Assembly: GCA_035525225.1 (NCBI GenBank) | Contig: DATLFA010000061.1 | Location: 128,180-192,179 of the forward strand | Direction: 5' to 3' | Source: Acidimicrobiales bacterium | Lineage (GTDB): Bacteria; Actinomycetota; Acidimicrobiia; Acidimicrobiales; WLNW01 | DNA: 64,000 nt | In this document: positions 2,931 through 62,781 of the stretch, piece after piece | Position numbering within the stretch: the first letter of the stretch is position 1 | How the letters are laid out: each line of letters begins with the position of its first letter | Notes under the pieces: model-generated | Told to the model about the DNA's origin: nothing | What the model saw: only the letters and a program-made list of their open reading frames with translations | Databases searched by the model: none | Position numbers and translations under genes: made by a program

Positions 2931-5321
2931 ATGCGGAGTCTGATGAAAGGGCCTATCGGCGAGATCGCGGGGACGAACCCGGCCCCGGGCGGCCCCGTCG
3001 CGCCGGTTCGGCGCCGGACGGTGCCGTGGACGCGGCTAGCGGTGATGGCCGGCGGCGCGGTGTTGACGGTGTCGCTGTTTTGGGGATTGCAGGGCGTGGG
3101 GCGCGACGCGGTGACCCCGGTGGCGGGCGCGCTGGCGGTCGCCACCATCCTCGTCGGCACGCGGCTTCACCTCAAGGGCGAATCGATGCGGTCGTTGCGA
3201 TCGTCGCCCTGGTGGCTACTCGCGGCGGGTGTCGCGGTGTTGGCGGCAACGAGTGCCGGGACCAGTGCCTCACTGTCCCACGGCGGGCTTGTCGCGTTGG
3301 CTTCGCTCGGCGCCTATCCGCTGTTGGCAATCGGGCTCTTGCGGTTGTTGTGTGTCCGGTTGCCGCACCGAAGCGCCGACGTGCTGGCACAGGCGGGCAT
3401 GACGGCGACGGTGGTCGGGTTCGGCTGCGCCGCGGTCCTCGCCCCCGAATGGCACGACACGTTGTCGGCGCCGTACGCGCTCGCGATCCTCGCGCTGCCG
3501 GCACTCGACGCCGCGCTGCTCGTCATCGCGGTGCGCGTGCTCCTCCTGCCCGGTGATCGGCTCTTCGTCTCACGCGCGGTGGTACTCGCGGTGTCGTACC
3601 TGTTGGGTGCACACCTGGCGGCGGCGATGGGGACGTTCAGTGGATGGGCAGTGCCCGACGGTGTGGTGCGCGTGCTCCTCGTGTGCTCGTTCACGTTCTG
3701 GGCCGCCGGTGCGCTCGACCCGAGCATGCGGCGGCTTGCCGATCCGCTGGCCGAGGACCCACCGACGTTCAGCACCGTTCACTTCGTCCTGATCGAAGTC
3801 GGCATGTTGGCCACGCCGATCCTCGTGGTGCTCTGCGCGCAGAGAGGCACCGTGATCACCGTGGGCGCCGCGATCGCAGCAGGCATGGTCTCGGGGGTGT
3901 TGGCGGCGTACGTCGGCCACCTGTTGTGGCAGCGGGGTGCCCTCGAGCGCAGTGCACTGCATGATCCGCTCACCGGTCTCGCCAACCGCACGTTGTTCGC
4001 AGATCGCGTTGCTCGGGCGATCGCCCACGCTCGCCGGAACAATCTGCCGGTTGCGGTGTTGCTGGTCGACCTCGATCATTTCAAGAAGGTCAACGACAGC
4101 CTCGGTCATTCTGCGGGCGACGTGTTGTTGCGTGAGGTCGCGCGACGGCTACAAGCGAGCGTGCGCGAGGAGGACACCGTTGCGCGGCTCGGCGGCGACG
4201 AGTTCGCCGTGCTGCTGCCCCACGTCGCCGGTATCGAGGCAGCGGCGTTCGTGGGCGATCGGCTGCTCGGCGCATTCGCCACGCCCGTGTCGATCGCCGA
4301 ACAACAGGTCATGGTGACGGCCAGCATCGGGCTGAGCCTGTATCCCGACGATGGCCCCGATCTCGAAGCACTCATCGAAGGTGCCGACGCGGCGATGTAT
4401 CGCGCGAAGGAGCAGGGCCGGAACACCGTCGAGGTCTTCAGCCCCGCGCTGATGACGCAGGCCCATGAACGGCTCGCCCTCGAATCCGCACTGCGCCTCG
4501 CGGTCGAGAGCGACGAGCTCGTGTTGCACTACCAACCCAAGGTCGACCTGCGCACCGGCGCCATCTGCGGGGCAGAAGCACTCGTGCGCTGGAACCATCC
4601 GGAAAAGGGGCTGCTGTTCCCGGGACACTTCGTGCCCTTGGCCGAACAGAGCGGCTTGATGGTGGCAATGGGGGAGTACGTGATTGCCGCCGCCCTCGAA
4701 CAGTTGCAGCAGTGGCGCGCCGGCGGGCTTGCGCCTCTCGTCATGTCGGTGAACATCTCGGCCCGCCAACTCTGCAGCGGGCTCGCCGACTACATCTCGA
4801 GAGCGCTGCGAATGACGGGCGTCGATCCACGGTCGTTGGAGCTCGAACTGACCGAAAGCGCGGCGGTCGAGAGCCTCGACCTGACCGCCAGCGAACTCAA
4901 CGAGTTGCGGGCAATCGGGGTGCGTTGCAGCATCGATGACTTCGGCACGGGCTATTGCGGTCTGAGCTACCTGAGCCGTCTGCCCATCGACGTGCTCAAG
5001 ATCGACAGGTCGTTCATCCACACCATGACCGCCGCTGACGCGTCGATCGTCACGGCCATCATTGCGCTAGGGCACAGTCTCGGGTTGCGCGTGGTCGCCG
5101 AAGGCGTCGAGACCCCCGAACAGCTGGCCTACCTCGCCCATCGGGGCTGCGACGAAGTGCAGGGGTACCTGTTCAGCAAACCGGTCCCCGCGCACGAATT
5201 CACACGGCTGCTGATCGAACACGCGCCGGGCGGACCTGGCCGACTGCCTGTGCGCACCATCGGCACCGCCGAAAACGGAGTGCGATTGATCGACGACCGC
5301 ACCGCAGTCGTCTTGCCATAG
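2931..5321 (+). CDS. Polytopic membrane GGDEF/EAL protein (diguanylate cyclase/phosphodiesterase)
   Basis: In-frame ATG at 2931 inside track ORF 1986..5321; the upstream part is an antisense shadow of the dehydrogenase gene. About 10 hydrophobic segments are followed by [11 protein letters not shown] and EALVRW...[13 protein letters not shown]. Start is uncertain. Confidence 0.85.
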
Positions 5322-5730: not shown

Positions 5731-7821
5731 GTGCCGCACGCGATCGCCCGGCAAACTTCGATCTTGTTCATCGGGCTCAGCGATGAAGACGCTCTGCGAT
5801 GCGAGGCGCTTCTCGACGAGGCGTCCCCGTCGGAGTTCGCTACGACATGGATGACCGTCGCCGAGGCGACGTCGCTCCTCGAAAGCGAGATGCCGGACTG
5901 CGCGGTGGTCGATCTCCCACTTGCAGACGCAGAAAGTGGTCTCGCGACCGTTGAAATGCTCGCCGCCCGCTCAGCCGTCGTAGCGCTCATCGTGTTGACC
6001 GATCGTGCCGACGCCGACTTCGGTATGGCCACGCTCGAGGCCGGCGCGGACTTCTACCTCTTCAAGACCAGATTGAAAGCCAACCTCTTCGTACGGTGCG
6101 TTCGCCAAGCCATCGTGCGCAAGCGAGTAGAAGCCTCGTTGGCGGAGGCGCAGAACATCGCCCGGGTCGGCAGTTGGGAGGTCGACCTCGCTACTTCGGC
6201 AGTGCGCTGGTCGCGCGAGCTGTACCGTGTCTTCGACATCAGCAACGACGTAAAGCCGACTTTCGGCGCGCTCTTGCACCGGATACACCACGACGACCGC
6301 GCGTCAGCGCTGAAGATGTTCCAGGCCACGCTCGACGAGCACAGTGCGTTCGCCATCGAGTTTCGCGTCCTTCACGACGACGGGTTGACTCGGTGGGTGC
6401 GCGCCAGCGGCAGAGTCGAGCACGATGCCCATGGTCGGCCGGGACGGTTGATCGGTACCACGCAGGACATCACCGAGCAAAGGGTGGCTCGCGACGCGGT
6501 GATCCACCAGGCGTTCCACGATCCCCTCACCGGCCTGCCGAACCGGCTACTGCTGCTCGACCGCATGACCCAAGCCTTGGCCCGCCTGGCCCGCCAGCCC
6601 TCGACCGTCGCGGTGATCTACCTCGACATCGATCGCTTCCGCATGATGAACGACAGCCTCGGCTACGCGGAGGGAGACGAACTGTTGAAGGCCGTTGCCG
6701 GCCGGCTCGCGGGTCTCGTGCGTCCCGAGGACACGCTGGCGCGCACGGGCGGCGACGAATTCGTCGTGTTGTGCGAAGGGCTCGACGGTGAAGGTGGCGC
6801 GGTCGATATCGCCGATCGCATCTGCACATGGATGCAAGAGCCGCTGGCGTGGCACGGCCGAGAATTGGTGATCACGATGAGCGCCGGCATCGCGCTCGCG
6901 ACCTCCAACACACTCAGCCCGGAGATGTTGCTCAGAGATGCGGACGCCGCCATGTACACGTCGAAACGCGAACGGCGCACGCGCTGTGCGGTGTTCGTCG
7001 CGTCCATGCGCGACAAAGCCGCCGGCCTGCTCGACACCGAGATGTCGCTGCGCCGATCCATCGACGACGGCGATCTTCGGTTGCACTACCAACCGATCTT
7101 GTCCCTCGTCGACGCCCGAGTGCTCGGCCACGAGGCGTTGGTCAGATGGGCGCACCCGACCCGCGGACTGATCGCGCCCGATCAGTTCATCTCGATCGCC
7201 GAAGAGAGTGGGCTCATCGTTCCACTCGGTGCGTGGGTGCTCCGCGAAGCGTGCCTCCAGGCAAAGCGGTTCCAACAACGCGATCCGCGATGGTCGAGGC
7301 TCACGATGTCGGTGAACCTGTCGGGTCGCCAACTGGGTCAACCCGATCTGGCCGACGTGGTCAGAGCGGCGTTGAGCGACGCCGAATTGTCTCCGGGTGA
7401 CCTACAGCTCGAGATGACCGAAAGCGTGTTGATGGATGATGCGGGACACGCCATCGCGATCCTGGAGACACTGAAACGCCTGGGTCTGCGTCTGGGGATC
7501 GACGACTTCGGTACCGGTTACTCGTCGTTGGCGTATCTGCGCCGCTTCCCCGTCGACGTACTCAAGATCGATCGGTCGTTCATCGACGGGCTGGGCCGAG
7601 ATCTCGAAGATTCTGCAATCGTCGCCGCGCTCGTGAGTCTCGCCGACACGCTCGGGCTCACGACGATCGCCGAGGGCGTCGAGACCGAACTCCAGCGCGA
7701 GTCGCTCCTGGTTCTGGGGTGCACGCGCGCCCAGGGCTATCTATTCGGCCGCCCGGTCGGGGCGCCCGAGGCCGAGCAATTCCTCGACCGCGCCGCGGAG
7801 AATCTCGCCCGCATGGTCTGA
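5731..7821 (+). CDS. Receiver-PAS-GGDEF-EAL c-di-GMP signalling protein
   Basis: Track ORF of 696 aa with a GTG start. Domains: receiver-like N-terminus (VVDLPLAD), PAS (SWEVDL...WSRELYRVFD), RTGGDEFVVLC, and EALVRW plus DDFGTGYSSLAYL. Confidence 0.85.
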   Translation: MPHAIARQTSILFIGLSDEDALRCEALLDEASPSEFATTWMTVAEATSLLESEMPDCAVVDLPLADAESGLATVEMLAARSAVVALIVLTDRADADFGMATLEAGADFYLFKTRLKANLFVRCVRQAIVRKRVEASLAEAQNIARVGSWEVDLATSAVRWSRELYRVFDISNDVKPTFGALLHRIHHDDRASALKMFQATLDEHSAFAIEFRVLHDDGLTRWVRASGRVEHDAHGRPGRLIGTTQDITEQRVARDAVIHQAFHDPLTGLPNRLLLLDRMTQALARLARQPSTVAVIYLDIDRFRMMNDSLGYAEGDELLKAVAGRLAGLVRPEDTLARTGGDEFVVLCEGLDGEGGAVDIADRICTWMQEPLAWHGRELVITMSAGIALATSNTLSPEMLLRDADAAMYTSKRERRTRCAVFVASMRDKAAGLLDTEMSLRRSIDDGDLRLHYQPILSLVDARVLGHEALVRWAHPTRGLIAPDQFISIAEESGLIVPLGAWVLREACLQAKRFQQRDPRWSRLTMSVNLSGRQLGQPDLADVVRAALSDAELSPGDLQLEMTESVLMDDAGHAIAILETLKRLGLRLGIDDFGTGYSSLAYLRRFPVDVLKIDRSFIDGLGRDLEDSAIVAALVSLADTLGLTTIAEGVETELQRESLLVLGCTRAQGYLFGRPVGAPEAEQFLDRAAENLARMV

Positions 7822-19893: not shown

Positions 19894-21168
19894 GTGGCTG
19901 AACCGAGCGTCGACTATTCGCGGCCCAAGGGCACGCGCGACATCCTGCCGCCCGAGTCGCAGCGCTGGCGCGGGCTCGTCGGTGTCTTCGCGGACGTCGT
20001 CGAAACCGCCGGCTACGGCCACGTCGTGCCCCCCATGTTCGAGCACGTCGAGGTCTTCCACCGCATCGGTGAGGCCACCGACGTCGTGGCCAAAGAGATG
20101 TACGAACTGACCGACCGCGGCGGGCGCCGACTCGCGCTGCGCCCCGAGCAGACGGCGTCGGTCGTGCGCATGTTCGTCGAGAACCGCCCGAACGTGCCGT
20201 GGAAGGTCTGGTACGCCGGGCCCAACTTCCGCGCCGAGAACGTACAAAAAGGTCGCTACCGGCAGTTCGATCAAGTGGGCATCGAGGTGTTGGGTGTCGA
20301 CGATCCGTACCTCGATGTCGAGGTCATCGCGCTGGCGTGGCGGTTCTACGAGCGACTCGGGCTGACGCAGGTGCGTCTGGTGCTCAACTCGCTCGGCGCC
20401 GCCGGCGATCGCGGCCGCTATACCGAAGCGTTGCGCGAGTACTTCGGCCGTCACCTCGACGCGCTGTCGAGCGAGTCGCGCGAAACGCTGAACCGCAACC
20501 CGTTGCGCGTGCTCGATTCGAAGCGCGAAGTCGACCGCGAGATCGTCGTCGGCGCCCCGCGCCTTCGCGACTTCCTTTCACCCGACGCGGCTGCCGACTT
20601 CGAGACGGTGCAAGAGGGACTGCGGGCCCTCTCGATTCCATTCGACGTCGACGAACGCTTGGTGCGCGGGCTCGACTACTACCGCAAGACCACGTTCGAG
20701 TTTGGCGCCGGCGCGCTCGATGCCGCGCAAAACGCGGTCGGAGGTGGTGGCCGCTACGACGGGCTCGTCGAGGAGATGGGTGGTCCGCCGACCCCCGGCG
20801 TGGGCTTCGCAATCGGCGTCGATCGCACGTTGTTGGCATGCGACGCCGAAGGTGCCTTTGCTGCACCGGTGGCTGGTGTCGATGTCTTCGTCGTCGACAC
20901 CACCGGCGGGCGGCACGCGTCCGCGCTCACCGACGAGCTCTGGCGCGCCGGCATCAGAGCCGACCGCGCGTACGAGAACCGTTCGATGAAGGCACAGATG
21001 AAGGTGGCCGATCGTTCCGGAGCCGCGGTCGCCTTGATCGTCGGCGGCGACGAAGCCGAAGCGGGCGTCGTCACGGTCCGGCCGTTGCGCCGCCGCGAAG
21101 GCGAAACTGCCGCACAACGCCAGATCGCGCGGGCCGAAGTCATAGTCGAACTGAAGAGGACACTGTGA
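19894..21168 (+). CDS. hisS: Histidine--tRNA ligase
   Basis: Track ORF of 424 aa. PKGTRDILP, LRPEQTASVVR, FRAENVQKGRYRQFDQVG and GGGRYDGL are class II HisRS motifs. Confidence 0.95.
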   Translation: MAEPSVDYSRPKGTRDILPPESQRWRGLVGVFADVVETAGYGHVVPPMFEHVEVFHRIGEATDVVAKEMYELTDRGGRRLALRPEQTASVVRMFVENRPNVPWKVWYAGPNFRAENVQKGRYRQFDQVGIEVLGVDDPYLDVEVIALAWRFYERLGLTQVRLVLNSLGAAGDRGRYTEALREYFGRHLDALSSESRETLNRNPLRVLDSKREVDREIVVGAPRLRDFLSPDAAADFETVQEGLRALSIPFDVDERLVRGLDYYRKTTFEFGAGALDAAQNAVGGGGRYDGLVEEMGGPPTPGVGFAIGVDRTLLACDAEGAFAAPVAGVDVFVVDTTGGRHASALTDELWRAGIRADRAYENRSMKAQMKVADRSGAAVALIVGGDEAEAGVVTVRPLRRREGETAAQRQIARAEVIVELKRTL

Positions 21169-21211
21169 AGAGGGCACTGTGATTAGGACATCCGTGAAGA
21201 GGACATCGTGA
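21155..21211. repeat. Four tandem 14-15 nt units (AGAGGACAYYGTGA) bridging the hisS stop and the aspS start
   Basis: Units at 21155-21168, 21169-21182, 21183-21197 and 21198-21211. Each ends in GTGA. The first GTGA contains the hisS stop and the last contains the aspS start. Confidence 0.9.
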
Positions 21212-22974
21212 AGAGCTCTCGTATCACGCTTTCGCGCAGCACGTCGTTGCGAACCGACATGTGCGGTGAGCTGCGCGCTGCCGATGCGGGTCGCTCTGTC
21301 ACCGTGTGCGGCTGGGTATATCGCCGCCGCGAGCACAGCGAGCATCTGGCATTCGTCGACGTACGCGACCACACCGGCATCGTGCAGTGCGTCGTCGATG
21401 GCGCACGTGAGCTCCGCGGCGAGTATGTCGTGCGCATCAGGGGCACGGTGGCCCTGCGTCCCGCCGAGAACATCAACGACAAACTGGCGACGGGGGAGAT
21501 CGAGATCCACGATTGCACGGTCGAGGTGCTCTCCGCCGCAGAGACGCCACCGTTCACGATCGACGACCGCACCGACCAGGTCGATGAGAACGTCCGACTC
21601 CGTTATCGCTACCTCGACCTCCGACGCGACCGCATGCAGCGCAACCTGAGAATCCGGGCGGCCGTCAACAGCGCGATCCGGTCTGCGATGGAGCGGCAGG
21701 GCTTCGTCGAAGTCGAAACTCCCATGCTGATGCCATCGACCCCGGAGGGCGCTCGCGAGTTCCTCGTACCGTCGCGCAAGGAACCAGGCTCGTTCTACGC
21801 ACTCCCACAGTCGCCGCAACTCTTCAAGCAATTGTTGATGGTCGGTGGATTCGATCGCTATTTCCAGATCGCGCGGTGCTTGCGCGACGAGGATCTGCGT
21901 GCCGACCGGCAGTACGAGTTCATGCAACTCGATGCCGAGATGAGCTTCGTCGATCAGGACGATGTGCTCGAAGCGATCAGCGAAGCAGTGCTCGACGCGG
22001 CCCAGGTGACCATCGGTGAGCGCCCCGACGTGATCCCGCGCATGACCTGGCACGACGCCATGGATCGATTCGGCGTCGACAAGCCCGACCTCCGCTTCGG
22101 GATGGAACTCGTCGAGCTCACCCCGATGTTCGCCGCGACGTCGTTCAAGGCGTTCGCCGGGGCGGCGGCGATCAAGGCCATCCGCCACGCCGGGGCATCG
22201 TCGACGACGTCACGCAACCAGCTCGACGCGCTCACCGATCGCGCGAAGAAGATCGGTGCCAAGGGTCTCGTATGGATGCGTGTCGGCGACGAACGGGTCC
22301 TCGATTCGCCGGTCGCCAAGTTCCTCTCCGACGACGAAAAGTCGGCGATCGTCGCGGCGACCGATGCGCAGCCGGGCGACATGTTGTATCTCGTCGCCGA
22401 CGAATGGGCAATGACGTGTGACGTGCTCGGGCAACTGCGCAACGACCTGGGTCGCCCGCCCGTGCATCAAGGTCCGTACCGCTACGTGTGGATCGTCGAC
22501 TTCCCGATGTTCGTCGGCGTCGATGCGGTGACCGGCATCCCCAAACCGGCACACCATCCGTTCACCCGCCCGCATCCCGATGACATCAACCGCCTCGAGA
22601 GCGATCCCATGTCCGTGCGATCACGGGCCTACGACTTGGTGCTCAACGGCTGGGAGTTGGGCTCGGGTTCGATCCGTATCCACGAGCCCGAGTTGCAACA
22701 ACGCATCTTCAACCTGTTGGGCATCGCCCCCGACGAAGCGATGAAGCGATTCGGCTTCTTCCTCACGCCGTTCCGCTATGGCGCGCCGCCCCACGGCGGG
22801 TTCGCGTTCGGCATCGATCGCCTGGTGGCAATCCTCGCGGGTGAAGACAACATCCGTGAGGTCATCGCGTTCCCCAAGACGCAATCGGGCACCGATCCGA
22901 TGACCAACTCGCCGACGCCGGTCGACCCCAAGCAGTTGGCCGAACTGGGCTTGCGCGTCATCCCTCGCGCGTAG
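21208..22974 (+). CDS. aspS: Aspartate--tRNA ligase
   Basis: Track ORF of 588 aa with a GTG start. LAFVDVRDHTGIVQ (OB fold), FYALPQSPQLFKQLLMV, FQIARCLRDEDLRADRQ and GGFAFGIDRLV are class IIb AspRS motifs. Confidence 0.95.
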   Translation: MKSSRITLSRSTSLRTDMCGELRAADAGRSVTVCGWVYRRREHSEHLAFVDVRDHTGIVQCVVDGARELRGEYVVRIRGTVALRPAENINDKLATGEIEIHDCTVEVLSAAETPPFTIDDRTDQVDENVRLRYRYLDLRRDRMQRNLRIRAAVNSAIRSAMERQGFVEVETPMLMPSTPEGAREFLVPSRKEPGSFYALPQSPQLFKQLLMVGGFDRYFQIARCLRDEDLRADRQYEFMQLDAEMSFVDQDDVLEAISEAVLDAAQVTIGERPDVIPRMTWHDAMDRFGVDKPDLRFGMELVELTPMFAATSFKAFAGAAAIKAIRHAGASSTTSRNQLDALTDRAKKIGAKGLVWMRVGDERVLDSPVAKFLSDDEKSAIVAATDAQPGDMLYLVADEWAMTCDVLGQLRNDLGRPPVHQGPYRYVWIVDFPMFVGVDAVTGIPKPAHHPFTRPHPDDINRLESDPMSVRSRAYDLVLNGWELGSGSIRIHEPELQQRIFNLLGIAPDEAMKRFGFFLTPFRYGAPPHGGFAFGIDRLVAILAGEDNIREVIAFPKTQSGTDPMTNSPTPVDPKQLAELGLRVIPRA

Positions 22975-26115: not shown

Positions 26116-26578
26116 CGTTGCGGCGGTCGTCGCGATCGTGTTGTGCCTTGCCGGCGCGGCCTTATTCGCGATCATGGTCCGCCGCATGGTCCGGGCATTG
26201 CGCGACCTCGACGCACTCGCCGAGAGCCTGCGCGTCGAGGCGGTGCCGCTCGTGAGCAACCTCCGGGCCACGGTCCGTCAAGCAGGCGACGATCTGGATC
26301 GAGTCGAGGCGGTGCTCGGCAAGGCCGAGACCATCGCGACCACCGTCGATGCCGCGTCGCGGCTGACCTACCGGGCGTTGCGGCCGCCGCTGGTGAAGAC
26401 GATGGCGTTCATGTCGGGGGCCGGTCGCGCCACCCGGCGGCTGCGGGGCCTGGAAGCCAAGGCGATCGAGGCCAAGGCGATCGACGCGAAAGCCATCGGC
26501 GCGAAGGCCGGCGACAGCACTCGGCGTGAGCAGAACCCACCGCGCCGAACCCGCCGCCGGCGCCGTGGGCGGCGATAG
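26102..26578 (+). CDS. DUF948-like membrane-anchored protein
   Basis: ATG 26102 lies inside track ORF 26063..26578 and overlaps the rarA end. One N-terminal helix is followed by coiled-coil-like LRDLDALAESLRVEAVPLVSNLRATVRQAGDDLDRVEAVL and a basic tail. Confidence 0.65.
   Translation: MSAIDVAAVVAIVLCLAGAALFAIMVRRMVRALRDLDALAESLRVEAVPLVSNLRATVRQAGDDLDRVEAVLGKAETIATTVDAASRLTYRALRPPLVKTMAFMSGAGRATRRLRGLEAKAIEAKAIDAKAIGAKAGDSTRREQNPPRRTRRRRRGRR
26453..26512. repeat. In-frame 15-nt x4 minisatellite (EAKAI EAKAI DAKAI GAKAG) in the DUF948 gene tail
   Basis: Units: GAAGCCAAGGCGATC, GAGGCCAAGGCGATC, GACGCGAAAGCCATC, GGCGCGAAGGCCGGC. Confidence 0.85.
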
Positions 26579-26591
26579 GCGTCTTTCCCCT

Positions 26592-26661
26592 GCCAATGTG
26601 ACCAGCGGCGGATTATCGCCGCCAATGTGACCAGCGGCGGATTATCGCCGCCAATGTGACT
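26592..26661. repeat. R1 element: 29-nt unit GCCAATGTGACCAGCGGCGGATTATCGCC, 2.4 tandem copies
   Basis: Identical copies at 26592-26620 and 26621-26649, with a partial third copy at 26650-26661. Each holds a small hairpin (CGGCGG-ATTA-TCGCCG) and ATGTGA. A related array lies at 34369-34426. Confidence 0.9.
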
Positions 26662-26672
26662 AGCCTGGTCGG

Positions 26673-26981
26673 ATGCCCAAGAGAGCGTTCTGGACCGTTG
26701 TCGGGTACGGCGCGGGTATCGCTTCCACGGTCATGGTCAAGCGCCGGGTGCGGCGCACGGTCAATCGTTATGCGCCGTCGGAGGTGCGCAGCGCCGTTAC
26801 TGCAAGAGGTACCGACGTCGTCGACCGCGCCAAGCGAGTCACCACCGAGATCCGCGCCGCAGCCGACGAAGGACTGCGGGCAATGCGGATTCGACGGCAG
26901 GAACTCGATGACGAATTCGTGCTGCCGAGCGAGATCCAGACGAGTGATCTCCGCCAGCCCGGTCGAATAGGCAATCGATAG
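26673..26981 (+). CDS. Small hypothetical protein with one N-terminal hydrophobic helix
   Basis: Track ORF of 102 aa. FWTVVGYGAGIASTVMV is followed by a charged helical region. It has better codon bias than the overlapping ORF 26656..26970. Confidence 0.55.
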   Translation: MPKRAFWTVVGYGAGIASTVMVKRRVRRTVNRYAPSEVRSAVTARGTDVVDRAKRVTTEIRAAADEGLRAMRIRRQELDDEFVLPSEIQTSDLRQPGRIGNR

Positions 26982-27010: not shown

Positions 27011-29578
27011 GTGAACGCGAACGAGTTGCGCCGCGCTTTCGTCGATTTCTTCGTGAGCAGGGAGCACCACCACGAGGCTTCGGCGAGTCTCATCCCGCAT
27101 GACCCGACATTGCTCTTCACCGTCGCGGGTATGGTTCCGTTCAAGCCGTACTTCCTGGGCGACGAGGTCGCGCCATGGCCACGGGCGGTCACGGTGCAGA
27201 AGTGCGTCCGCGCCGGCGGCAAGCACAACGACCTCGACGAGATCGGCCACACGTCGCGCCACCTGACGTTCTTCGAGATGCTGGGCAACTTCAGCTTCGG
27301 CGACTACTTCAAAGAGCGGGCCATTCCGTACGCGTGGGAGTTCGTCACTCGGACCCTCGGTCTCGACCCTCACCGACTCTGGGTCACGGTGCATGTCAGC
27401 GACGACGACGCAGCCGAGATCTGGCGCGACGTGGTGGGCGTGCCCGCCGAGCGCATCCAACGTCTCGATGAGGACAATTACTGGCGCATGGCCGACACCG
27501 GTCCGTGTGGGCCATGCTCGGAGATCTTCTGGGACAAGGGCCCGGCCTACGGCGCCGATGGTGGCCCGGCGCACGGGGGCGCCGAGCGGTTCGTCGAGAT
27601 CTGGAACCTCGTGTTCATGCAGTTCGATCAACGCGCCGACGGCACGTTGGTCCCATTGCCCCGGCCGAGCATCGATACCGGGGCCGGCCTCGAGCGCATC
27701 TTGGCGGTATTGCAGGACGTCGATTCGGTGTGGGACACCGAGGAGTTCCAGCAACTGCTGGCGGTCGCGTCGCGTCTCGCCGGCCGGCGCTATGGGTCCG
27801 AACCCCGCTCTGACGTGTCGCTGCGCATTCTCGCGGACCACGCGCGCTCGACGGCGTTCTTGGTGAACGACGGCGTGTTCCCTTCGAACAACGATCGCGG
27901 CTACGTGCTGCGGCGAATCATGCGGCGCGCGATCCGTCACGCCTACATCGTGGGGATCGAAGAGCTGGTGTTGCCCGCGATGATCGACTCGGTCGTCGAC
28001 ATCATGGGCGCCGACTATCCGGAGCTGGCGAAGAATCACGATTTCATCCGTGAGGTCGCGCAGCGCGAAGAAGAGCGGTTCCGCCAGACTTTGAAGACCG
28101 GCTCGGGCATCCTCGATGTCGAGCTCGATCAACTCGCGGCCGCGGGTGGGACCACGTTGTCCGGTGCTGTCGCGTTCCTCCTCCACGACACCTACGGGTT
28201 CCCGCTCGAGGTCACGCAAGAAATCGTCGCTGAACGCAATCTGACCGTCGACAACGACGGCTTCGCGAGTGCGATGCAACAGCAACGCAAGCGTGCAAAA
28301 GATGCGCGCAAGGTCGAAGGGGGCACCGTCGACCTCGAGCCCTATCTCGACGTGCTCGCCACGTTCGGGCCGACAGAGTTCGTCGGCCGCGATCACTACG
28401 AGATCGAAAGTCGTGTGCTGCATGTCGACGACACCTCGATCGTGCTCGATCGCACTCCGTTCTACGCAGAGTCCGGCGGTCAGGTCGGCGATACGGGCAC
28501 CATCACCGGTCCCTCGGGTGTCGTCCGCGTCATCGACACGCAGTCGATTGCGGGCGCCTTGAGCCGTCACATCGTCGAACCCGTCGACGGCCACATCGAA
28601 GTCGGCCAGACCGTGATGGCTTCGATCGACGCCGAGCGGCGCGATGCCATCCGCCGTCACCACACCGGTACCCACATCTTGCATTGGGCGTTGCGCACCG
28701 TGCTGGGCGAACACGTGAAGCAGCAGGGTTCGTACGTGGGTCCCGACCGCTTGCGCTTCGATTTCTCGCACTACCAAGGTCTGACCGACGTCGAGATCCG
28801 CGCCATCGAAGACCTCGCCAATCACGAAGTGTTGGCCAATGCGCGCGTGCGCCACTACGAAACCACCAAGGACAACGCCGAGCAGCTGGGCGCCATCGCA
28901 TTCTTCGGCGACAAGTACGGCGATATCGTGCGCGTGCTCGAAGCGGGGGAACGGTCGCTCGAGCTGTGTGGCGGCACGCATGTGCGCGCACTGGGCGACA
29001 TCGGTCCGATGAAGATCGTGTCCGAGGGTTCGATCGGCTCCAACATCCGCCGCCTCGAGGCGATTGCCGGATTCGGACCCATCGATCGCCTGCGCGACGA
29101 AGAAGCGACGCTCGCGCGTGCGGCCGAGCTCGTCGGTGTGCCTGCGGGCGAGCTGGTCCAGGGCATCGAGAAGCGTCTCGCGGAGAACAAAGAGCTCGCG
29201 GCTGAATTGCGGCAACTGCGCCAGCAACTCGCGTCGGCCGGTGCCGGCGAACTCGCGGCGCAGGCGATCGACGGCATCGTCGTGGCCCGTCACGACGGCG
29301 TCGATCGCGACGCACTGCGCGACCTCGCGTTCGCGGTGCGCGACCAACCGGGTGTGCGTGCAGTGATCTTGGGTGGAGCGCCCGAGGGCGGCGGCGCGGC
29401 GCTGGTCTCGGCCGTGGCCAAAGGCTCGGGACTTCACGCCGGCGAACTGATTGCCGACGCGGCCAAGCTCATCAAGGGCGGAGGCGGCAAGGGCGCCGAC
29501 TTCGCGGTTGCCGGTGGCAAAGACGCCGCGGGCATCGACGCGGCGTTGGCGGCCGCGCGCGCCGCGACAGGGCTGTGA
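27011..29578 (+). CDS. alaS: Alanine--tRNA ligase
   Basis: Track ORF of 855 aa. FTVAGMVPFKPYF, RAGGKHNDLDEIGHTSRHLTFFEMLGNFSFGDYFK and the editing-domain HTGTHILHWALR...CGGTHV. Confidence 0.95.
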   Translation: MNANELRRAFVDFFVSREHHHEASASLIPHDPTLLFTVAGMVPFKPYFLGDEVAPWPRAVTVQKCVRAGGKHNDLDEIGHTSRHLTFFEMLGNFSFGDYFKERAIPYAWEFVTRTLGLDPHRLWVTVHVSDDDAAEIWRDVVGVPAERIQRLDEDNYWRMADTGPCGPCSEIFWDKGPAYGADGGPAHGGAERFVEIWNLVFMQFDQRADGTLVPLPRPSIDTGAGLERILAVLQDVDSVWDTEEFQQLLAVASRLAGRRYGSEPRSDVSLRILADHARSTAFLVNDGVFPSNNDRGYVLRRIMRRAIRHAYIVGIEELVLPAMIDSVVDIMGADYPELAKNHDFIREVAQREEERFRQTLKTGSGILDVELDQLAAAGGTTLSGAVAFLLHDTYGFPLEVTQEIVAERNLTVDNDGFASAMQQQRKRAKDARKVEGGTVDLEPYLDVLATFGPTEFVGRDHYEIESRVLHVDDTSIVLDRTPFYAESGGQVGDTGTITGPSGVVRVIDTQSIAGALSRHIVEPVDGHIEVGQTVMASIDAERRDAIRRHHTGTHILHWALRTVLGEHVKQQGSYVGPDRLRFDFSHYQGLTDVEIRAIEDLANHEVLANARVRHYETTKDNAEQLGAIAFFGDKYGDIVRVLEAGERSLELCGGTHVRALGDIGPMKIVSEGSIGSNIRRLEAIAGFGPIDRLRDEEATLARAAELVGVPAGELVQGIEKRLAENKELAAELRQLRQQLASAGAGELAAQAIDGIVVARHDGVDRDALRDLAFAVRDQPGVRAVILGGAPEGGGAALVSAVAKGSGLHAGELIADAAKLIKGGGGKGADFAVAGGKDAAGIDAALAAARAATGL

Positions 29579-30024
29579 CGGGCCCGAGCGGGCAGACCGG
29601 TGGCCGGGCCATCGGTCTCGACCTCGGCGCCAAGAGAATCGGCGTCGCGGTCAGCGACTCCGATCGCACGGTGGCCACGCCCATCGAGGTGGTCACCCGA
29701 AGCCGCGATATGGCCCGTGACCGCCTGCGCATCGGTGAGATCGTGCAGGAGTGGGAGGCAACGACGGTGGTCGTCGGTCTCCCGCTGTCACTGTCGGGCC
29801 AGGTCGGACCAGCCGCAAAGGCCGCCCTGGCCGAGGTCGAGGCCCTTCGTGCCACCCTCCGCGTGCAGGTCGAGACCTACGATGAGCGGCTGAGCACGCT
29901 CACCGCCGAACGGAGCCTGATGGAGCAATCGCTACGCGCGCCGGCGCGCCGCCGTGTCGTCGACAAGGTGGCTGCGGCCGTGATGCTCCAGGCATGGCTC
30001 GATCGGGGCCGGTCGAGATCATGA
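29575..30024 (+). CDS. ruvX: Holliday-junction resolvase-like RuvX (YqgF)
   Basis: Track ORF of 149 aa. The GTG overlaps the alaS stop (GTGA). GLDLGAKRIGVAVSD and DERLSTLTAE are YqgF motifs. Confidence 0.9.
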   Translation: MTGPSGQTGGRAIGLDLGAKRIGVAVSDSDRTVATPIEVVTRSRDMARDRLRIGEIVQEWEATTVVVGLPLSLSGQVGPAAKAALAEVEALRATLRVQVETYDERLSTLTAERSLMEQSLRAPARRRVVDKVAAAVMLQAWLDRGRSRS

Positions 30025-31388
30025 GCGACGACGACGGTTCCCGCAATCCTCGGCCCGCACCTCGCGGCGACACCGACACCGACATCGACACCGACACGGG
30101 CACGCCGCTCCAGAGCGAACCCGCGCCCAAGGCCAAGCCCACGCGGCAGCGGGCCACGCGCACGGTGGTGGACGCGGGCTCGAGCGGCCCTTCAGAGCGG
30201 AAAGCGGGCCCGAGCGACCCTTCGGAGCGGGCCAGAACGCGCCCGCAGCACAGCGCGCCGACGGCAGAAGGGACCACGGTCGCGGACGCCCGCCTGGCCG
30301 ACGTGGCCATCGACTACGCCGAAGATGGCTGGGTCGTGTTGCCGCGGCGCAGTTCCCGACAGCGCCGCATCCTCACCGCCGTGGCGTGCACGGCGATCAT
30401 CGGCCTCGTCGGCGCTGGCCTCGTGTGGCGGTGGGTGCAACAGCAGGTCCACCCGCCCGGTCCCGAAGGCGCGCCGATCGAGTTCACGATTCAATCAGGC
30501 TCGTCGACGAGTGAGATCGCCGCCGACCTCGCGCGTGAGGACATCATCGGGAATCCGACGATCTTCCGGATGTGGCTGAGCCGCAATGGAGGCGGGGTTT
30601 TCCAGGCGGGCATCTACGACATGCGCAAGAACATGGACTTCGCCGACGCGGTCGCGGTGCTGCGCGGCCCGGCGCGCGCGGTCACCGAGTTCCGGGTCAC
30701 GGTGCCTCCTGGTCTCACCATCAATCAGATAAAAGGCAAGCTGCTGGCGCAGTTGCAGCAATTCAACGGCACAGAGCTCGACGCGGCCTTGGCCAGTCCT
30801 GACGTGGCACTGAAGTGGGCGCCACCGACCGCGACGAATCGTGAGGGGATCTTCTTCCCCGATACGTACAACCTCGACGAGCGCACGGCGTCCGACGAGC
30901 TCGGCCTGCTGGTGCGCATGCGCGACGAGACCGAAAGGGTAGCCACCGAACTCGACATCGAGGGCCGTTCCGCGGCGCTCGGCGTGACGCCATGGCAGGT
31001 GCTCATCGTCGCCTCCTTGATCGAGCGCGAAGCAAAGGTCGACCCCGACCGGGCGAAGATCGCGCGCGTCATCTACAACCGCTTGTATCTCGATACCGAG
31101 CTGCAGATCGATGCCACCGTGCTGTACGCGGTCAACAAGGATCGAGGGCTGACGCTCAACGATCTCACCGTCGACAGCCCCTACAACACCTACAAGGTCA
31201 AAGGGCTGCCACCAACGCCGATCGCGGCGCCCAGTCGCAAGTCGATCGAGGCCGCGTTGAATCCCGCCGACGGCCGGTGGTTTTGGTACGTGCTCACCGA
31301 CGAGGGCGGTGCTCACACCTTTGCCGAGACCGAAAGGGCGTTCCTCGCGGCCAAAGAGATCTGCGAACGCAAAGGGCTCTGTGGATGA
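30021..31388 (+). CDS. mltG: Endolytic murein transglycosylase MltG (YceG-like) with a long disordered N-terminus
   Basis: ATG 30021 overlaps the ruvX stop (ATGA), inside track ORF 29994..31388. A transmembrane segment ILTAVACTAIIGLVGAGLVW is followed by ASLIEREAKV and SPYNTYKVKGLPPTPIAAPS. Confidence 0.9.
   Translation: MSDDDGSRNPRPAPRGDTDTDIDTDTGTPLQSEPAPKAKPTRQRATRTVVDAGSSGPSERKAGPSDPSERARTRPQHSAPTAEGTTVADARLADVAIDYAEDGWVVLPRRSSRQRRILTAVACTAIIGLVGAGLVWRWVQQQVHPPGPEGAPIEFTIQSGSSTSEIAADLAREDIIGNPTIFRMWLSRNGGGVFQAGIYDMRKNMDFADAVAVLRGPARAVTEFRVTVPPGLTINQIKGKLLAQLQQFNGTELDAALASPDVALKWAPPTATNREGIFFPDTYNLDERTASDELGLLVRMRDETERVATELDIEGRSAALGVTPWQVLIVASLIEREAKVDPDRAKIARVIYNRLYLDTELQIDATVLYAVNKDRGLTLNDLTVDSPYNTYKVKGLPPTPIAAPSRKSIEAALNPADGRWFWYVLTDEGGAHTFAETERAFLAAKEICERKGLCG
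30174..30230. repeat. R2 element, two tandem copies (30-nt period), in frame inside the mltG N-terminal region
   Basis: GCGGGCTCGAGCGGCCCTTCAGAGCGG at 30174-30200 and GCGGGCCCGAGCGACCCTTCGGAGCGG at 30204-30230. They encode GSSGPSERK and AGPSDPSER. Confidence 0.9.
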
Positions 31389-32353: not shown

Positions 32354-33442
32354 GTGGCCCTTCAAGGAACACTGGACACATTCGCACTGCCTGATGTGCT
32401 CCGGCTATTGGCGACGACCCGCAAGACGGGACGTTTGCGCGTCAACGGTGACCGCGGGTCGGGCAGCCTGTGGGTCGAGGAAGGTCAGCTGGCCGCGAGC
32501 GAATTGATCGTGCCGGGTGCCACCGACGACAGCCTCATCAACACGTTGTTCCACTTGCTGCGCTTCAAGCGCGGCTCGTTCATCTTCGAAACGGGCGCGA
32601 TGGCGCCGGCGGGGATGGTCGCGAGCGAGATCGAGCCGATGCTCGACGAGGCCGAGGCGATGCTCGTCGAATGGCGCTCGATCGAAGCCGTCGTACCGTC
32701 GGTCGATGCGTGGTTGACGTTGCGCCCCGAATTGGCCGGCTCGATGGTCAAGATCGACAACGAGCGCTGGCGCATCATCGCCGCGATCGGTGGCGGTCGC
32801 AGCGTCGGTGGTGTCGGCGAGGCGCTAGGTCTCGACGAGTTGCCCGCGCTGCGTGGCGTCAAGGAAATCGTCGAACTGGGTCTCGTCACGGTGGGCACCC
32901 GTGCCCCGGATGATGCCGAAGGCGATCGCTCCGCGAGCCTTGTCGACGAAGCGCTCTCTTCGTCGGTTGCCGACGCCGTGCCCCCGATCGGGGAACCGGC
33001 AGACTTGCGCACGCAGTGGGAGGGCCCGGGCGATACGAACGGCCAGTCCACCACCCAACCGGGGTTCCAGGGCTGGGACGAGCCGACGAGCGAATGGGAA
33101 GAGTCCGCGCCGGGCTACTATCAGCCCCACGACATGGCCGGTCCGAGTTCGTCGGAGATGAGTGGTCTCGGCGATGCCGGCCTGAGCGACGAACCGCACT
33201 ACGACGCCGACTCGTATCCCGAGCCGGCGCGTGGTCGATCGTTCGAATCCGAACTCGACGACCCTGCCGAGATCGCCCGCCAATTGGCGAACTTGAGCCC
33301 GCGGGCGGCGAAGGCCGTGGCCGCGGCCGCGAAGGCACAGACTCCCGAGGAGCGCGAGGCCGCGCTGGCCGCAATCGAAGCAGAAGACGACACCGTCAAC
33401 CGTGGATTGCTGTTGAAGTTCCTCGGTTCCGTCGACTCCTGA
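32354..33442 (+). CDS. DUF4388-domain protein with an acidic disordered C-terminal half
   Basis: Track ORF of 362 aa with a GTG start. N-terminal LQGTLDTFALPDVLRLLATTRKTGRLRV matches the DUF4388 (PatA-N-like) signature as I remember it. Confidence 0.65.
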   Translation: MALQGTLDTFALPDVLRLLATTRKTGRLRVNGDRGSGSLWVEEGQLAASELIVPGATDDSLINTLFHLLRFKRGSFIFETGAMAPAGMVASEIEPMLDEAEAMLVEWRSIEAVVPSVDAWLTLRPELAGSMVKIDNERWRIIAAIGGGRSVGGVGEALGLDELPALRGVKEIVELGLVTVGTRAPDDAEGDRSASLVDEALSSSVADAVPPIGEPADLRTQWEGPGDTNGQSTTQPGFQGWDEPTSEWEESAPGYYQPHDMAGPSSSEMSGLGDAGLSDEPHYDADSYPEPARGRSFESELDDPAEIARQLANLSPRAAKAVAAAAKAQTPEEREAALAAIEAEDDTVNRGLLLKFLGSVDS

Positions 33443-33481
33443 TCGTCGGTCAGGGATACTCGAACCGATGAGCGAAGCGAA

Positions 33482-33511
33482 GCGGGCCCGAGCGGCCCCT
33501 TTCAGAGCGGG
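33482..33511. repeat. R2 element, single copy with 2 extra nt, intergenic upstream of the prepilin peptidase gene
   Basis: GCGGGCCCGAGCGGCCCCTTTCAGAGCGGG. It lies inside a 17-codon uORF (33468-33521). Confidence 0.85.
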
Positions 33512-33517
33512 ACGCAA

Positions 33518-34357
33518 GTGAGCAAGCAGCTCTTGGTGGGTCTGTCGATCCCCCTGGGGCTCGTCATCGGCAGCCTGCTCACGATGGTCATCGACCGCGT
33601 GCCCGAGCGGTGGCCGGTGTTCCGGCCGGGCCCGCGTTGCCCGCACTGCGAAGCGCCGATCGCGCCGCGCCACCTCGTGCCCGTTGTGTCGTGGTTCATG
33701 TTGCGGGGGCGCTGCGCTTCGTGCAACGAACGCATCACCGTCGCGTATCCGATCGTCGAGGTCGTCACCGCGTTCGCGTTCGCCGCGGCCGCGGTGCGCT
33801 TCGGGCCCCTCTGGACCGTGGTCGCCTACTGGCTGTTCTTCGCGACGCTCATCGCGGTGTCGGTCGTCGACCTCTTCAATTACATGATTCCCGACCGCAT
33901 CGTGTTCCCCTCGCTCGGTGCGTCGCTCGTGTTGATCGTGGCGATCTCGCTGTACTACGACGAACCAAAGGCGATCGCGGGAGCGCTCATCGGCATGCTC
34001 GCCTACGCGGTGATGCTCGGTCTCCCGTTCGTCATCCGGCCGAACGCGCTCGGCTTCGGCGACGTGAAGCTGGCCCTCGTGATGGGTCTGTTCCTCGGAT
34101 GGACCGACGATTATCTGAACTCTGTCCGTTTGGTGTTGATCTCGCTTGTGATCGGTTGTCTCGTCGGTCTCGGCATCGGCGCCGCGTTGTTCCTCGCCCG
34201 CAAGGTGACGGGCCGCGAGTTGCTGATCGATCCGTTGGTCGAGGCGGGCGAGCTCGCCCCCCAGACCGGGCTGTTCGGGACGACGTTCCCCTTCGGCCCC
34301 GCGCTCGCCATCGGGGCCTCGGTCGGCGTGCTCTTCGCGCCCCAACTGCTGGGCTGA
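33518..34357 (+). CDS. pilD: Type IV prepilin peptidase (A24 family)
   Basis: Track ORF of 279 aa with a GTG start. Zinc-ribbon-like RCPHCEAPI...RCASCNERI, catalytic-Asp region GFGDVKLALVMGLFLGW and multiple transmembrane segments. Confidence 0.85.
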   Translation: MSKQLLVGLSIPLGLVIGSLLTMVIDRVPERWPVFRPGPRCPHCEAPIAPRHLVPVVSWFMLRGRCASCNERITVAYPIVEVVTAFAFAAAAVRFGPLWTVVAYWLFFATLIAVSVVDLFNYMIPDRIVFPSLGASLVLIVAISLYYDEPKAIAGALIGMLAYAVMLGLPFVIRPNALGFGDVKLALVMGLFLGWTDDYLNSVRLVLISLVIGCLVGLGIGAALFLARKVTGRELLIDPLVEAGELAPQTGLFGTTFPFGPALAIGASVGVLFAPQLLG

Positions 34358-34368
34358 TTCCCCGCCGC

Positions 34369-34426
34369 CCGAACGGCGGATTATCGCCGTCAATGTGCCG
34401 AACGGCGGATTATCGCCGTCAATGTG
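34369..34426. repeat. R1 element: two tandem 29-nt copies (CCGAACGGCGGATTATCGCCGTCAATGTG)
   Basis: Identical copies at 34369-34397 and 34398-34426. They share the 23-nt core CGGCGGATTATCGCCG[C/T]CAATGTG and the same 29-nt period with the array at 26592-26661. Confidence 0.9.
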
Positions 34427-34455
34427 AAAGGCTCGCTGCCGACTCAGGGGGTCTT

Positions 34456-51378: not shown

Positions 51379-51966
51379 ATGAACCGACGGCCGCTGACGA
51401 TCGTCTTGTCGGGCGCCGGCGGTGCGGGCAAAGGCACGATCGCGCGTCGCCTCGCCGAGCTCGATCACACGTTGTGGCTGTCGCGTTCGTGGACGACGCG
51501 TTCGCCTCGCGTCGACGATGCTCCGCTCGCGTATCGCTACGCCACCCGAGAAGAGTTCGAGCGCCATCGCGAACGTGGGGGGTTCCTCGAGTGGAACCAA
51601 TTCCACGACAACCTGTACGGCACCCCGGTGCCCGACCCGCCGGCCGGACACGACATCCTGCTCGAGATCGACGTCAACGGCGGGCGGCAAGTGCGCCGGC
51701 ATCATCGCGACGCTCTGTTGATCTTCGTCGAGGCACCGTCGGTGGAAGAACAGCGCCGGCGGCTGTTACGCCGGGGCGATTCGCCCGTGCAGGCCCAGGC
51801 CCGCATCCGCGAGGGCGACCGCGAGCGGCGCGACGCGAGAACGCTCGGCTACCGCTTCGTCGTCAACGACGACCTCGACAGGGCGGTCGCAGAGATCCGT
51901 CAGGCCATCGAGGAACGCCGCCCGCCGCGCAAAGCGGGCGAGCCGGGGCCAACAGTGAGACAGTGA
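51379..51966 (+). CDS. gmk: Guanylate kinase
   Basis: Track ORF of 195 aa. P-loop SGAGGAGKGT, SWTTRSPR, FLEWNQFHDNLYGTP and the overall Gmk pattern. Confidence 0.85.
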   Translation: MNRRPLTIVLSGAGGAGKGTIARRLAELDHTLWLSRSWTTRSPRVDDAPLAYRYATREEFERHRERGGFLEWNQFHDNLYGTPVPDPPAGHDILLEIDVNGGRQVRRHHRDALLIFVEAPSVEEQRRRLLRRGDSPVQAQARIREGDRERRDARTLGYRFVVNDDLDRAVAEIRQAIEERRPPRKAGEPGPTVRQ

Positions 51967-51997
51967 GGGCCAACAGTGAGGGCCAACAGTGAGGGAC
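51946..51997. repeat. 13-nt tandem repeat (GGGCCAACAGTGA) spanning the gmk stop; four GTGA motifs
   Basis: Full copies at 51946-51958, 51967-51979 and 51980-51992, plus an 8-nt partial GACAGTGA at 51959-51966 that contains the gmk stop, and a trailing GGGAC. Confidence 0.9.
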
Positions 51998-57892: not shown

Positions 57893-58498
57893 ATGGCGCC
57901 CTACGAGATACGGATCATCGGCGACCCTGTCCTCCGCCAGCGCGCGGCCGAGGTCACGCAGGTCGACGGGGCATTGGCCCGTCTCTGCGACGACATGTTG
58001 CACACGATGTACGAAGCGCCCGGCATCGGCCTGGCGGCCCCTCAGGTCGGAGTGCAAAAGCGTCTGTTCGTCTACGACGTGGGTGAAGGTCCGGGTGTGC
58101 TCGTCAATCCGGTGATCGTCGAGTCTCGCGGCACGTGGATGTACGAGGAAGGCTGCCTCTCGGTACCCGGTCTGTCGTGGGAGATCGAGCGGCCCAACGA
58201 GATCCACATACGGGGCTACGACCTCGACGGCAACGAGGTCGACATCGAGGCCGACGAGTTGCTCGGGCGCCTCTTCCAGCACGAGTTCGATCATCTCGAC
58301 GGCATCTTGCTCGTGGAGCGACTCGACGACGACCTGCGCCGGGCTGCGCTCAAGACGATCCGTGAGATGGTGCAAAACGGCACTCTGACGCACGAGAATC
58401 GCGCCCGCCTTCGCGAGGAGGCAATGGGCCCGAGCGGCCCTTCAGAGCGGGGACCGGGCCCGAGCGGTCAGACGTCGAGCGGTCTCTCGTTGCCGTGA
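57893..58498 (+). CDS. def: Peptide deformylase with a repeat-derived Gly/Pro/Ser tail
   Basis: ATG 57893 lies inside track ORF 57155..58498. GIGLAAPQVG, EGCLSVPG and QHEFDHLDG. The extra tail is MGPSGPSERGPGPSGQTSSGLSLP. Confidence 0.9.
   Translation: MAPYEIRIIGDPVLRQRAAEVTQVDGALARLCDDMLHTMYEAPGIGLAAPQVGVQKRLFVYDVGEGPGVLVNPVIVESRGTWMYEEGCLSVPGLSWEIERPNEIHIRGYDLDGNEVDIEADELLGRLFQHEFDHLDGILLVERLDDDLRRAALKTIREMVQNGTLTHENRARLREEAMGPSGPSERGPGPSGQTSSGLSLP
58426..58482. repeat. R2 element, two tandem copies (30-nt period), in frame in the def C-terminal tail
   Basis: GGGCCCGAGCGGCCCTTCAGAGCGG at 58426-58450 and a diverged copy CCGGGCCCGAGCGGTCAGACGTCGAGCGG at 58454-58482. The array ends 13 nt before the def/fmt GTGA junction. 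Confidence 0.9.
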
Positions 58499-62735: not shown

Positions 62736-62781
62736 CGAAATCGACAACGGCCCTCTGAGCGGGAACCGATAGCATGTCGGC

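Follow-up and report, generated by a model that had tools for sequence, protein, structure and literature searches.

Two families of bacterial repeats offer the closest comparison for the element reported here. Mycobacterial interspersed repetitive units (MIRUs) measure ~40–100 bp and are described as intercistronic elements which share the orientation of the genes in their operons, vary in tandem copy number between relatives and occupy sites that are filled in one species and empty in another (Supply et al., 1997, as summarised in PMC3184786 and PMC12548453). In these accounts, MIRUs insert at start codons with −4 coupling, such that an open reading frame (ORF) through the repeat overlaps the downstream start and the insertion is buffered by translational coupling (PMC12548453; PMC3184786). 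Rickettsia palindromic elements (RPEs) are described as palindromes of 105–146 bp, restricted to Rickettsia, which lie between genes or are inserted in frame into protein-coding genes, where the host protein tolerates the added peptide (Ogata et al., 2000, as cited in PMC3184786). The present analysis concerns repeat X, a short element in a stretch of 64,000 nt from an Acidimicrobiales metagenome-assembled genome (MAG; contig DATLFA010000061.1, positions 128,180–192,179), which is referred to as the window and has a G+C content of 63–69%. X is dispersed, insertion-polymorphic and locally unstable, and is tolerated only at gene junctions or as in-frame inserts. It appears to constitute a MIRU-like family of junction repeats, previously undescribed as far as could be found, for which a mode of spread can be proposed.

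Overall, X acts most like a MIRU, and within genes it behaves like an RPE. Both MIRUs and X reside in high-G+C Actinomycetota; most intergenic X copies point in the same direction as the genes on both sides, their tandem copy number varies between relatives, empty and filled sites are found between species, and ORFs through X are predicted to be coupled to the downstream gene in the manner summarised for MIRUs. Compared by description rather than by sequence, the mycobacterial units are longer than the 25–33 nt of X, which carries a 5′-proximal GC hairpin plus a purine tail, is often found as an in-frame insert of genes, in either orientation, and is spread over many species of another class, the Acidimicrobiia. 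Furthermore, tetranucleotide direct repeats are reported in the MIRU summaries, whereas X is associated with long and variable target duplications (10–46 nt). RPEs are several times the size of X, which is ~30 nt long and adds 10–11 residues per unit, and, unlike them, X forms tandem arrays and has most of its copies between genes.

Repeat X in the window and in other Acidimicrobiia

The X unit spans ~29–33 nt and reads (CCN) GGGCCCGAGCGGCCCTTC[A/G]GAGCGG followed by GRRR. In the window, the core GGGCCCGAGCGGCCCTTC[A/G]GAGCGG is found at 30176, 30206, 33484 (with 2 extra nt) and 58426, and all copies, half-copies and one decayed copy lie on the + strand. The 25-mer GGGCCCGAGCGGCCCTTCAGAGCGG, taken as X, matches positions 30176–30200 with one mismatch, 30206–30230 with two and 58426–58450 with none, but does not match any of 100 dinucleotide shuffles of the window. 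Its 5′ part, the 15-mer GGGCCCGAGCGGCCC, has seven matches with up to two mismatches, all on the + strand, against 0.93 expected, a number which no shuffle reaches, and Tandem Repeats Finder reports 30174–30230 as a tandem of period 30 with 1.9 copies and 88% matches. An earlier note, made from the letters of the window alone, had proposed such a repeat at four loci and had named GC-rich low complexity as a possible explanation of it; the repeat is real, and chance similarity of this kind fails since no shuffle attains the observed matches.

Two tandem copies with a 30-nt period lie in the cytoplasmic N-terminal region of mltG (30021–31388, + strand), where copy 1 (30176–30200) reads GSSGPSER and copy 2 (30206–30230) reads GPSDPSER. 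The exact copy (58426–58450) reads GPSGPSER in the C-terminal tail of def (57893–58498, + strand), 45 nt before the GTGA overlap of def with fmt (58495–59391, + strand). The peptides given in the earlier note for the coding copies, as well as its distances to stop/start overlap junctions, are correct. Two of its assignments stand only in part, as the second copy in def (58456–58467) and the 19-nt variant in ruvX (29580–29598) are 12-nt half-copies, GGGCCCGAGCGG, and not full units. In def, the half-copy stands in place of the ancestral GGCGCGCGG (GAR), the codons after it (QTSSGLSLP) are again ancestral, and the bases on its 3′ side (CAGACGTCGAGCGG, encoding QTSSG) also occur in relatives without X. 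The ruvX half-copy consists of GGGCCCGAGCGG plus GCAGACC, begins 2 nt past the GTGA overlap of alaS (27011–29578, + strand) with ruvX (29575–30024, + strand) and forms codons 3–8 of ruvX, read GPSGQT; it is a true remnant of X, as a relative (L074) carries an X array at the same place. Outside coding sequence, a 27-nt variant, CCCCTTTC, with the 2 extra nt lies at 33484–33510 between a gene for a 362-aa protein (32354–33442, + strand) and a prepilin peptidase gene (33518–34357, + strand, GTG start), and a decayed remnant, CGGCCCTCTGAGCGGGAA, lies at about 62748–62765 in the ribA–hisG junction and is separated by 8 nt from the ATG of hisG at 62774.

Beyond the window, 185,579 species-representative genomes were scanned with a slightly degenerate X pattern, which revealed X at 66 loci in ~29 species-level MAGs of Acidimicrobiia, with flanks that are unrelated from site to site. 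The expectation of further copies elsewhere was thereby borne out. All but one of the 66 loci belong to Acidimicrobiales, Acidimicrobiia or generically labelled Actinomycetota MAGs, if three contigs binned as Burkholderiales (L002, L022, and L043) are included. Mis-binning of Acidimicrobiia DNA is the probable reason for these three; in L022, both flanks are 83–85% identical to an Acidimicrobiia locus (L063). The remaining match, in Kitasatospora (L044), is a single variant and was treated as chance, since about one chance match is roughly estimated for the high-GC part of the collection. Many independent assemblies contributed copies, and they stem from different studies and follow different contig-naming styles. 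One MAG holds 17 loci and others 9, 6, and 4, while some contigs of 0.3–1 Mb bear one exact copy only; the abundance of X is therefore very uneven between lineages. No match was found in the viral contigs searched for X, no Rfam family matched at eight X loci with E-values up to 1, and a literature search with the X sequence found no publication containing it. The RepRanger survey of repetitive extragenic palindromic (REP) sequences counts hairpin repeats in Acidimicrobium and gives no description of X.

Some loci hold arrays of 2–5 direct tandem copies with a locus-specific spacer. Their periods are 30 or 33 nt if translated and 31, 32, or 34 nt if not, within an overall tandem range of 28–36 nt, besides which there are periods of 53 and 71 nt. 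All 25 nt of X, including third codon positions, are identical across unrelated host genes. Its flank profile continues on the 3′ side as G-R-R-R, position +1 never being C or T, and shows a weak preference for C at positions −3 and −2. One contig (L074, 1–181) ends within an X array and another (L036, about 5070–5200) has an N-gap within one. X arrays thus appear to break short-read assemblies, so that copy numbers in MAGs are lower bounds.

Empty and filled sites

Comparison of orthologues reveals that X segments are confined to the closest relatives. Eight of the nine closest Def proteins (the exception being P0005) end in NRARLREQ-x(2-7)-(E/Q)T(S/P)SGLTLP, and GPSGPSER-like codons before this conserved end are found only in the window and in a relative of 91% identity (L070); the site is empty in three others of 79–88% identity (L068, L069, and L071). 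Similarly, the window shares the mltG segments only with three MltG proteins of 81–83% identity, and none of 11 MltG proteins of 69–76% identity carries them. Here, the X copies lie within coding sequence, as is evident from a conserved RNPRP motif that precedes them in frame. The second mltG copy is far more decayed in L074 and L075 than in the window.

At ruvX, X is missing from L072 and L073, the window has 0.5 copies, and L074 carries at least 5.5 in-frame units of 33 nt, read (SQSGEQGPSGP)n, directly before the RuvX core, its contig ending inside the array. The window sequence GGGCCCGAGCGGGCAGACC equals the last unit of the L074 type minus the stretch between two internal GAGCGG direct repeats, and a half-copy like that of ruvX also lies within the L065 array. 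At the prepilin peptidase gene, L072 and L073 have a single start, ATGAGCAAG, and no X, whereas in the window the order is ATGAGCGAAGCGAAGC, X, GACGCAA and GTGAGCAAGCAG. The X segments in def, mltG, ruvX and the prepilin peptidase start are therefore lineage-specific insertions and not conserved protein.

The same holds outside the window loci. In two acyl-CoA dehydrogenases of 68% identity (L030 and L015), each is filled where the other is empty, one X being in sense (QGPSGPSERD) and the other an antisense insert of 33 nt read SPALKGRSGPG. Paralogous AMP-ligases (L023 and L041) differ by a clean antisense insert of 30 nt, the reverse complement of X plus GAAGT. Orthologous loci also differ in copy number (two in L004 against one in L055; two in L025 against one in L054). 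Between ribA and hisG, two degenerate copies are present in L071 and the window remnant is decayed further; L071 has an X-like copy ahead of pheS as well, at a junction outside the window comparison. These sequence comparisons establish repeated independent insertion of X, followed by local expansion, contraction and decay. After insertion, X grows into tandem arrays, shrinks by deletion between its internal GAGCGG repeats, and decays. The suggestion that a small mobile or recombination-spread element has been absorbed into gene termini is thus supported by both the dispersal of X and its empty and filled sites.

One-sided flank homology at L007, L031, and L056 raised the possibility that X marks rearrangement breakpoints; this was rejected, as the homology is explained by a second short repeat on the 5′ side of X. 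At these loci and at L048, a segment of ~45 nt with a 10-bp stem, GCGGCGCAGG-TATC-CTGCGCCGC, lies directly 5′ of X while the loci are otherwise unrelated. Judged by its sequence, this segment looks like another hairpin repeat family of those MAGs.

Orientation, coding and duplicated gene starts

Arrays were classed by local coding potential with a codon model trained on the X loci themselves. Relative to adjacent coding DNA, 39 arrays are in sense, 13 in antisense, 2 mixed and 14 unassigned. The orientation of X agrees with the gene strand of the locus in 52 cases and disagrees in 19, as opposed to 37 against 32 for the sign of the local GC skew, which in loci of 8 kb is a weak proxy for replication direction; as far as this proxy goes, X orientation therefore tracks transcription and not replication. 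Most copies lie between genes or in 5′ leaders, mainly in sense, and many intergenic copies start a few bases past a stop codon and leave 5–25 nt between their end and a co-oriented ATG or GTG. Between divergent genes, X is closer to the co-oriented one in seven of eight cases. Several upstream genes run through X and stop 3–17 nt later. The 140 proteins neighbouring X are metabolically diverse.

The orientation bias (39:13 and 52:19), the usual position upstream of co-oriented start codons, the preference in divergent regions, the conserved purine tail resembling a Shine-Dalgarno (SD) site and the exact core in many species would all be expected if X were a selected cis-acting RNA or DNA signal, such as an enhancer of translation or coupling, a site for an RNase or RNA-binding protein, or a hairpin which stabilises mRNA, with the coding copies as by-products. 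Such a role is nevertheless judged unlikely. In close relatives, X is missing from the corresponding junctions and nothing visible has taken its place. Orthologous loci vary in copy number, orthologous copies decay (ribA–hisG and mltG copy 2), and the neighbouring genes are functionally heterogeneous. About a quarter of the copies are antisense or within enzyme domains, and no Rfam family corresponds to X. Furthermore, the hairpin that the earlier note saw in GGGCC-CGAGC-GGCCC does form, with a 5-bp stem, a 5-nt loop and −9.9 kcal/mol, but it is no more stable than shuffled sequences (z = 0.07), and changes in the stem comprise 7 wobble, 9 disruptive and 0 compensatory cases, with little variation overall. 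Complementarity of X to the 3′ region of 16S rRNA does not seem convincing either.

At least 17 arrays lie within coding sequence and are translated. Here, X forms in-frame inserts of 30 or 33 nt in Def, MltG and RuvX of the window and, in other MAGs, in acyl-CoA dehydrogenase, AMP-ligase, S-adenosylhomocysteine hydrolase, OdhA and others, which are ordinary enzymes carrying it in tails, interdomain linkers or loops. The sense strand of X is open in all three frames; the GPSGPSER frame is used by 13 of the 15 translated sense copies and the rest are C-terminal tails in other frames, while antisense copies in genes encode ALKGRSGP or RSEGPLGP. When a concatenated query of five possible X peptide arrays was searched against a protein database, only one protein passed (P0241), and frame usage is not measurable in this way. 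P0241, an AtpZ-like protein of 129 aa from an NCBI source, ends in a fourfold repeat of ARAALQSGEDR, which is an X array in the third sense frame; its tail indicates that frames other than GPSGPSER are used in tails.

The prevalence of one frame, which is also shared by the three translated loci among the four of the window, could suggest that X is a selected Gly/Pro/Ser linker, GPSGPSER, if it is not chance GC-rich low complexity or an assembly artefact. These explanations are hardly credible and are refuted by the results. Most copies are intergenic, the periods of non-coding arrays are not multiples of three, unrelated genes share 25 of 25 nt down to third codon positions, and antisense and other-frame copies exist. 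Chance is contradicted by the shuffles of the window, and an artefact by copies in many independent assemblies, some of which have decayed and yet remain in frame.

In seven of 75 arrays, X lies between direct duplications of the downstream gene start (score ≥14), compared with 0.25% of controls. These arrays represent ~5 independent events, to which the shorter duplication in the window is additional. The duplications measure 10–46 nt and extend from the SD region to about codon 10; their upstream copy abuts the 5′ end of X and their downstream copy begins a few bases past the purine tail. Consequently, the old start codon opens a short ORF which extends across X and terminates on the regenerated start or beside it, ending in GTGA in the window, in ATGA in L066, in TGATG in L022 and L063 and at −8 in L032, whereas L059 is an exception to this pattern. 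In the window, the duplicated start ATGAGCGAAGCGAAGC (33468–33483, + strand), a copy of the prepilin peptidase start (G/A)TGAGCAAGC, stands directly 5′ of the 27-nt variant, whose GGGA tail is 7 nt ahead of the peptidase GTG. The short upstream ORF (33468–33521, + strand) comprises 17 codons, MSEAKRARAAPFRAGRK, from the duplicated ATG through X to a TGA which overlaps the peptidase GTG as GTGA with −4 spacing. Translation of these short upstream ORFs through X is predicted from their sequence.

The arrangement of a 30–33-nt insert between direct duplications of 10–46 nt at five or more independent loci, together with the sharp 5′ boundary and defined length of the unit, would also fit an oligonucleotide of ~30–33 nt inserted by an integrase-like enzyme with widely staggered cuts (Cas1- or casposase-like) or captured by end joining at double-strand breaks. 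This explanation, for which the topology is the sole basis, seems very improbable: duplication length is highly variable, most sites lack a detectable duplication, cas1 and integrase genes were not seen among the 140 neighbours of X, and X is one single insert sequence, unlike CRISPR spacers. A broader proposal, tentative and on balance rather improbable, sees in X an actively mobile “portable junction cassette”, independent of transposases, in which a defined unit of ~30 nt with hairpin and SD-like tail enters the first codons of genes through an as yet unrecognised insertion mechanism that duplicates 10–46 nt of target. This mechanism could be templated break repair or an integrase that makes widely staggered cuts; the old start would then become that of a coupling upstream ORF and X would supply a new ribosome-binding site, both as candidate functions.

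Spread of repeat X and its place among known repeats

The account favoured here, which is held with moderate confidence, is that Acidimicrobiia carry X as a non-autonomous interspersed DNA repeat, which survives at junctions or in frame, is accommodated by coupled upstream ORFs and is copied in during replication or repair. X persists where harm is small, and its junction and sense bias may be a survival filter, as antisense copies would place CUCC-like anti-SD sequence near start codons. Where X lands a few codons past a start codon, the old start would drive a short upstream ORF that ends on or next to the regenerated start, and the purine tail GGGRR would provide an SD-like site; together, these could keep the downstream gene translated by coupling, as has been proposed for mycobacterial MIRUs. 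Spread may occur by template switching on GGG or purine-rich microhomologies during replication- or repair-linked copy-in, with some help from the small GC hairpin and without a dedicated transposase that makes a fixed target duplication. Such copy-in is suggested by the variable or absent target duplications, the GGG or purine microhomology at junctions, the lack of inverted pairs and the lack of a transposase seen nearby. Examples of this microhomology are an empty site GCC^GGGCTG facing the X 5′ end GGGCC, and L059, where the tail GAAGGAC merges with the native SD sequence AAGGAC.

Several observations weigh against this account or limit it. The exact 25-mer common to many species suggests a conserved recognising factor, which pure template switching leaves unexplained, and the boundaries of X are fairly sharp for polymerase slippage. 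Most insertions have no detectable target duplication, and some copies lie in the middle of enzyme domains and in antisense. Apart from the fact that it forms, nothing supports the hairpin, and the orientation bias and SD-like tail are just as compatible with selection for an RNA function. The junction bias could reflect selection after random insertion instead of the targeting proposed in the earlier note. An automated test of ORF termination through X relative to downstream starts yielded 15 usable cases with no control and is suggestive only. Gene calls came from a crude codon-usage caller of our own with known errors at def and fmt, and conservation estimates are biased, as the loci were found by near-exact match. 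Finally, the census rests on MAG contigs and not on complete genomes.

A conserved recognising factor would be at hand if X were a REP-type element whose mobility depended on an enzyme acting in trans from elsewhere in the genome, either a REP-associated tyrosine transposase (RAYT) or a single-strand transposase of the IS200/IS605 kind. Like REP sequences, including their bacterial interspersed mosaic element (BIME) and REPIN arrangements, which are ~20–40 nt long, GC-rich and capable of forming stem-loops, X combines small size and GC richness with a 5-bp stem, has many copies per genome at gene ends and inside operons, and keeps the same sequence across related species, as if recognised by a vertically inherited enzyme; differences in abundance between lineages are burst-like. 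Despite this resemblance in size and hairpin, several hallmarks of REP/RAYT systems are missing. All 75 arrays are single or direct tandems, with no inverted doublets of the REPIN or BIME kind; neither end of X carries the terminal tag GTAG or CGTC on either strand (criterion from PMC3733652); and the palindrome covers only 15 of the ~30 nt. REP sequences are extragenic, whereas many X copies lie inside coding sequence, and the orientation of X follows the gene strand and not GC skew. Target duplications of 10–46 nt are not known as a trait of Y1 transposition. Furthermore, no RAYT was found near any copy; the search covered the 140 neighbouring proteins rather than whole genomes, and their 25 most frequent Pfam families include no transposase family. 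Mobilisation in trans by such an enzyme is hence considered improbable.

Miniature inverted-repeat transposable elements (MITEs; Correia/NEMIS, ERIC, Nezha, and others) and CRISPR arrays differ from X as well. MITEs are likewise non-autonomous and dispersed, have empty and filled sites and are sometimes fused to ORFs or co-transcribed with neighbours. X, however, has no terminal inverted repeats, has target duplications which are absent or variable (10–46 nt), is 3 to 10 times shorter and has no known related insertion sequence. The spacers of X arrays are 3–9 nt long and identical within an array, as opposed to the unique spacers of CRISPR arrays.

Other repeats are present in the window. A second dispersed junction repeat, at 26577–26688 and 34369–34427, has a 29-nt unit, CGGCGGATTATCGCCG[C/T]CAATGTGA plus 4 nt, which is repeated ~3 times in tandem ahead of the gene at 26673 and twice between the prepilin peptidase and SDR genes. 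It is built like X, with a 5-bp GC stem, a 6-nt loop and a tail of ~13 nt, is intergenic on the + strand, and contains ATG, GTG, and TGA in its tail. At 34369–34427 it is absent in L072 and L073, and at 26577–26688 L072 has one degenerate copy. Further tandems at 51952–51995 and 21152–21215 consist of a perfect 13-nt unit, ACAGTGAGGGCCA (2.8 copies), and a 14-nt unit (4.5 copies), respectively, and the regions 4160–5021 and 6717–7587, ~2.56 kb apart, are paralogous gene segments of 75–81% identity. The 362-aa gene directly upstream of the prepilin peptidase gene has PF14332 (PatA_N) as its sole precomputed Pfam match, and a chorismate synthase label derived from gene order is unconfirmed.

As far as the literature was searched, X is the first interspersed repeat family found described for Acidimicrobiia, which are abundant yet poorly studied in soil, freshwater and marine habitats. 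X alters gene starts and termini, which affects annotation, and apparently breaks MAG assemblies, while its copy-number variation could serve as a typing marker similar to variable-number tandem repeats. As a DNA parasite of ~30 nt which adds Gly/Pro/Ser loops of 10–11 residues to essential enzymes in either orientation, it represents a concrete route to disordered linkers. The start duplications and their putatively coupled upstream ORFs take further the idea, drawn from MIRUs, that a repeat endures by keeping translation coupled, and they point to an insertion mechanism which does not fit known transposases. If the more tentative proposal of a cassette written into first codons were true, X would represent a new class of bacterial mini-element that rewires translation initiation and seeds disordered linkers.

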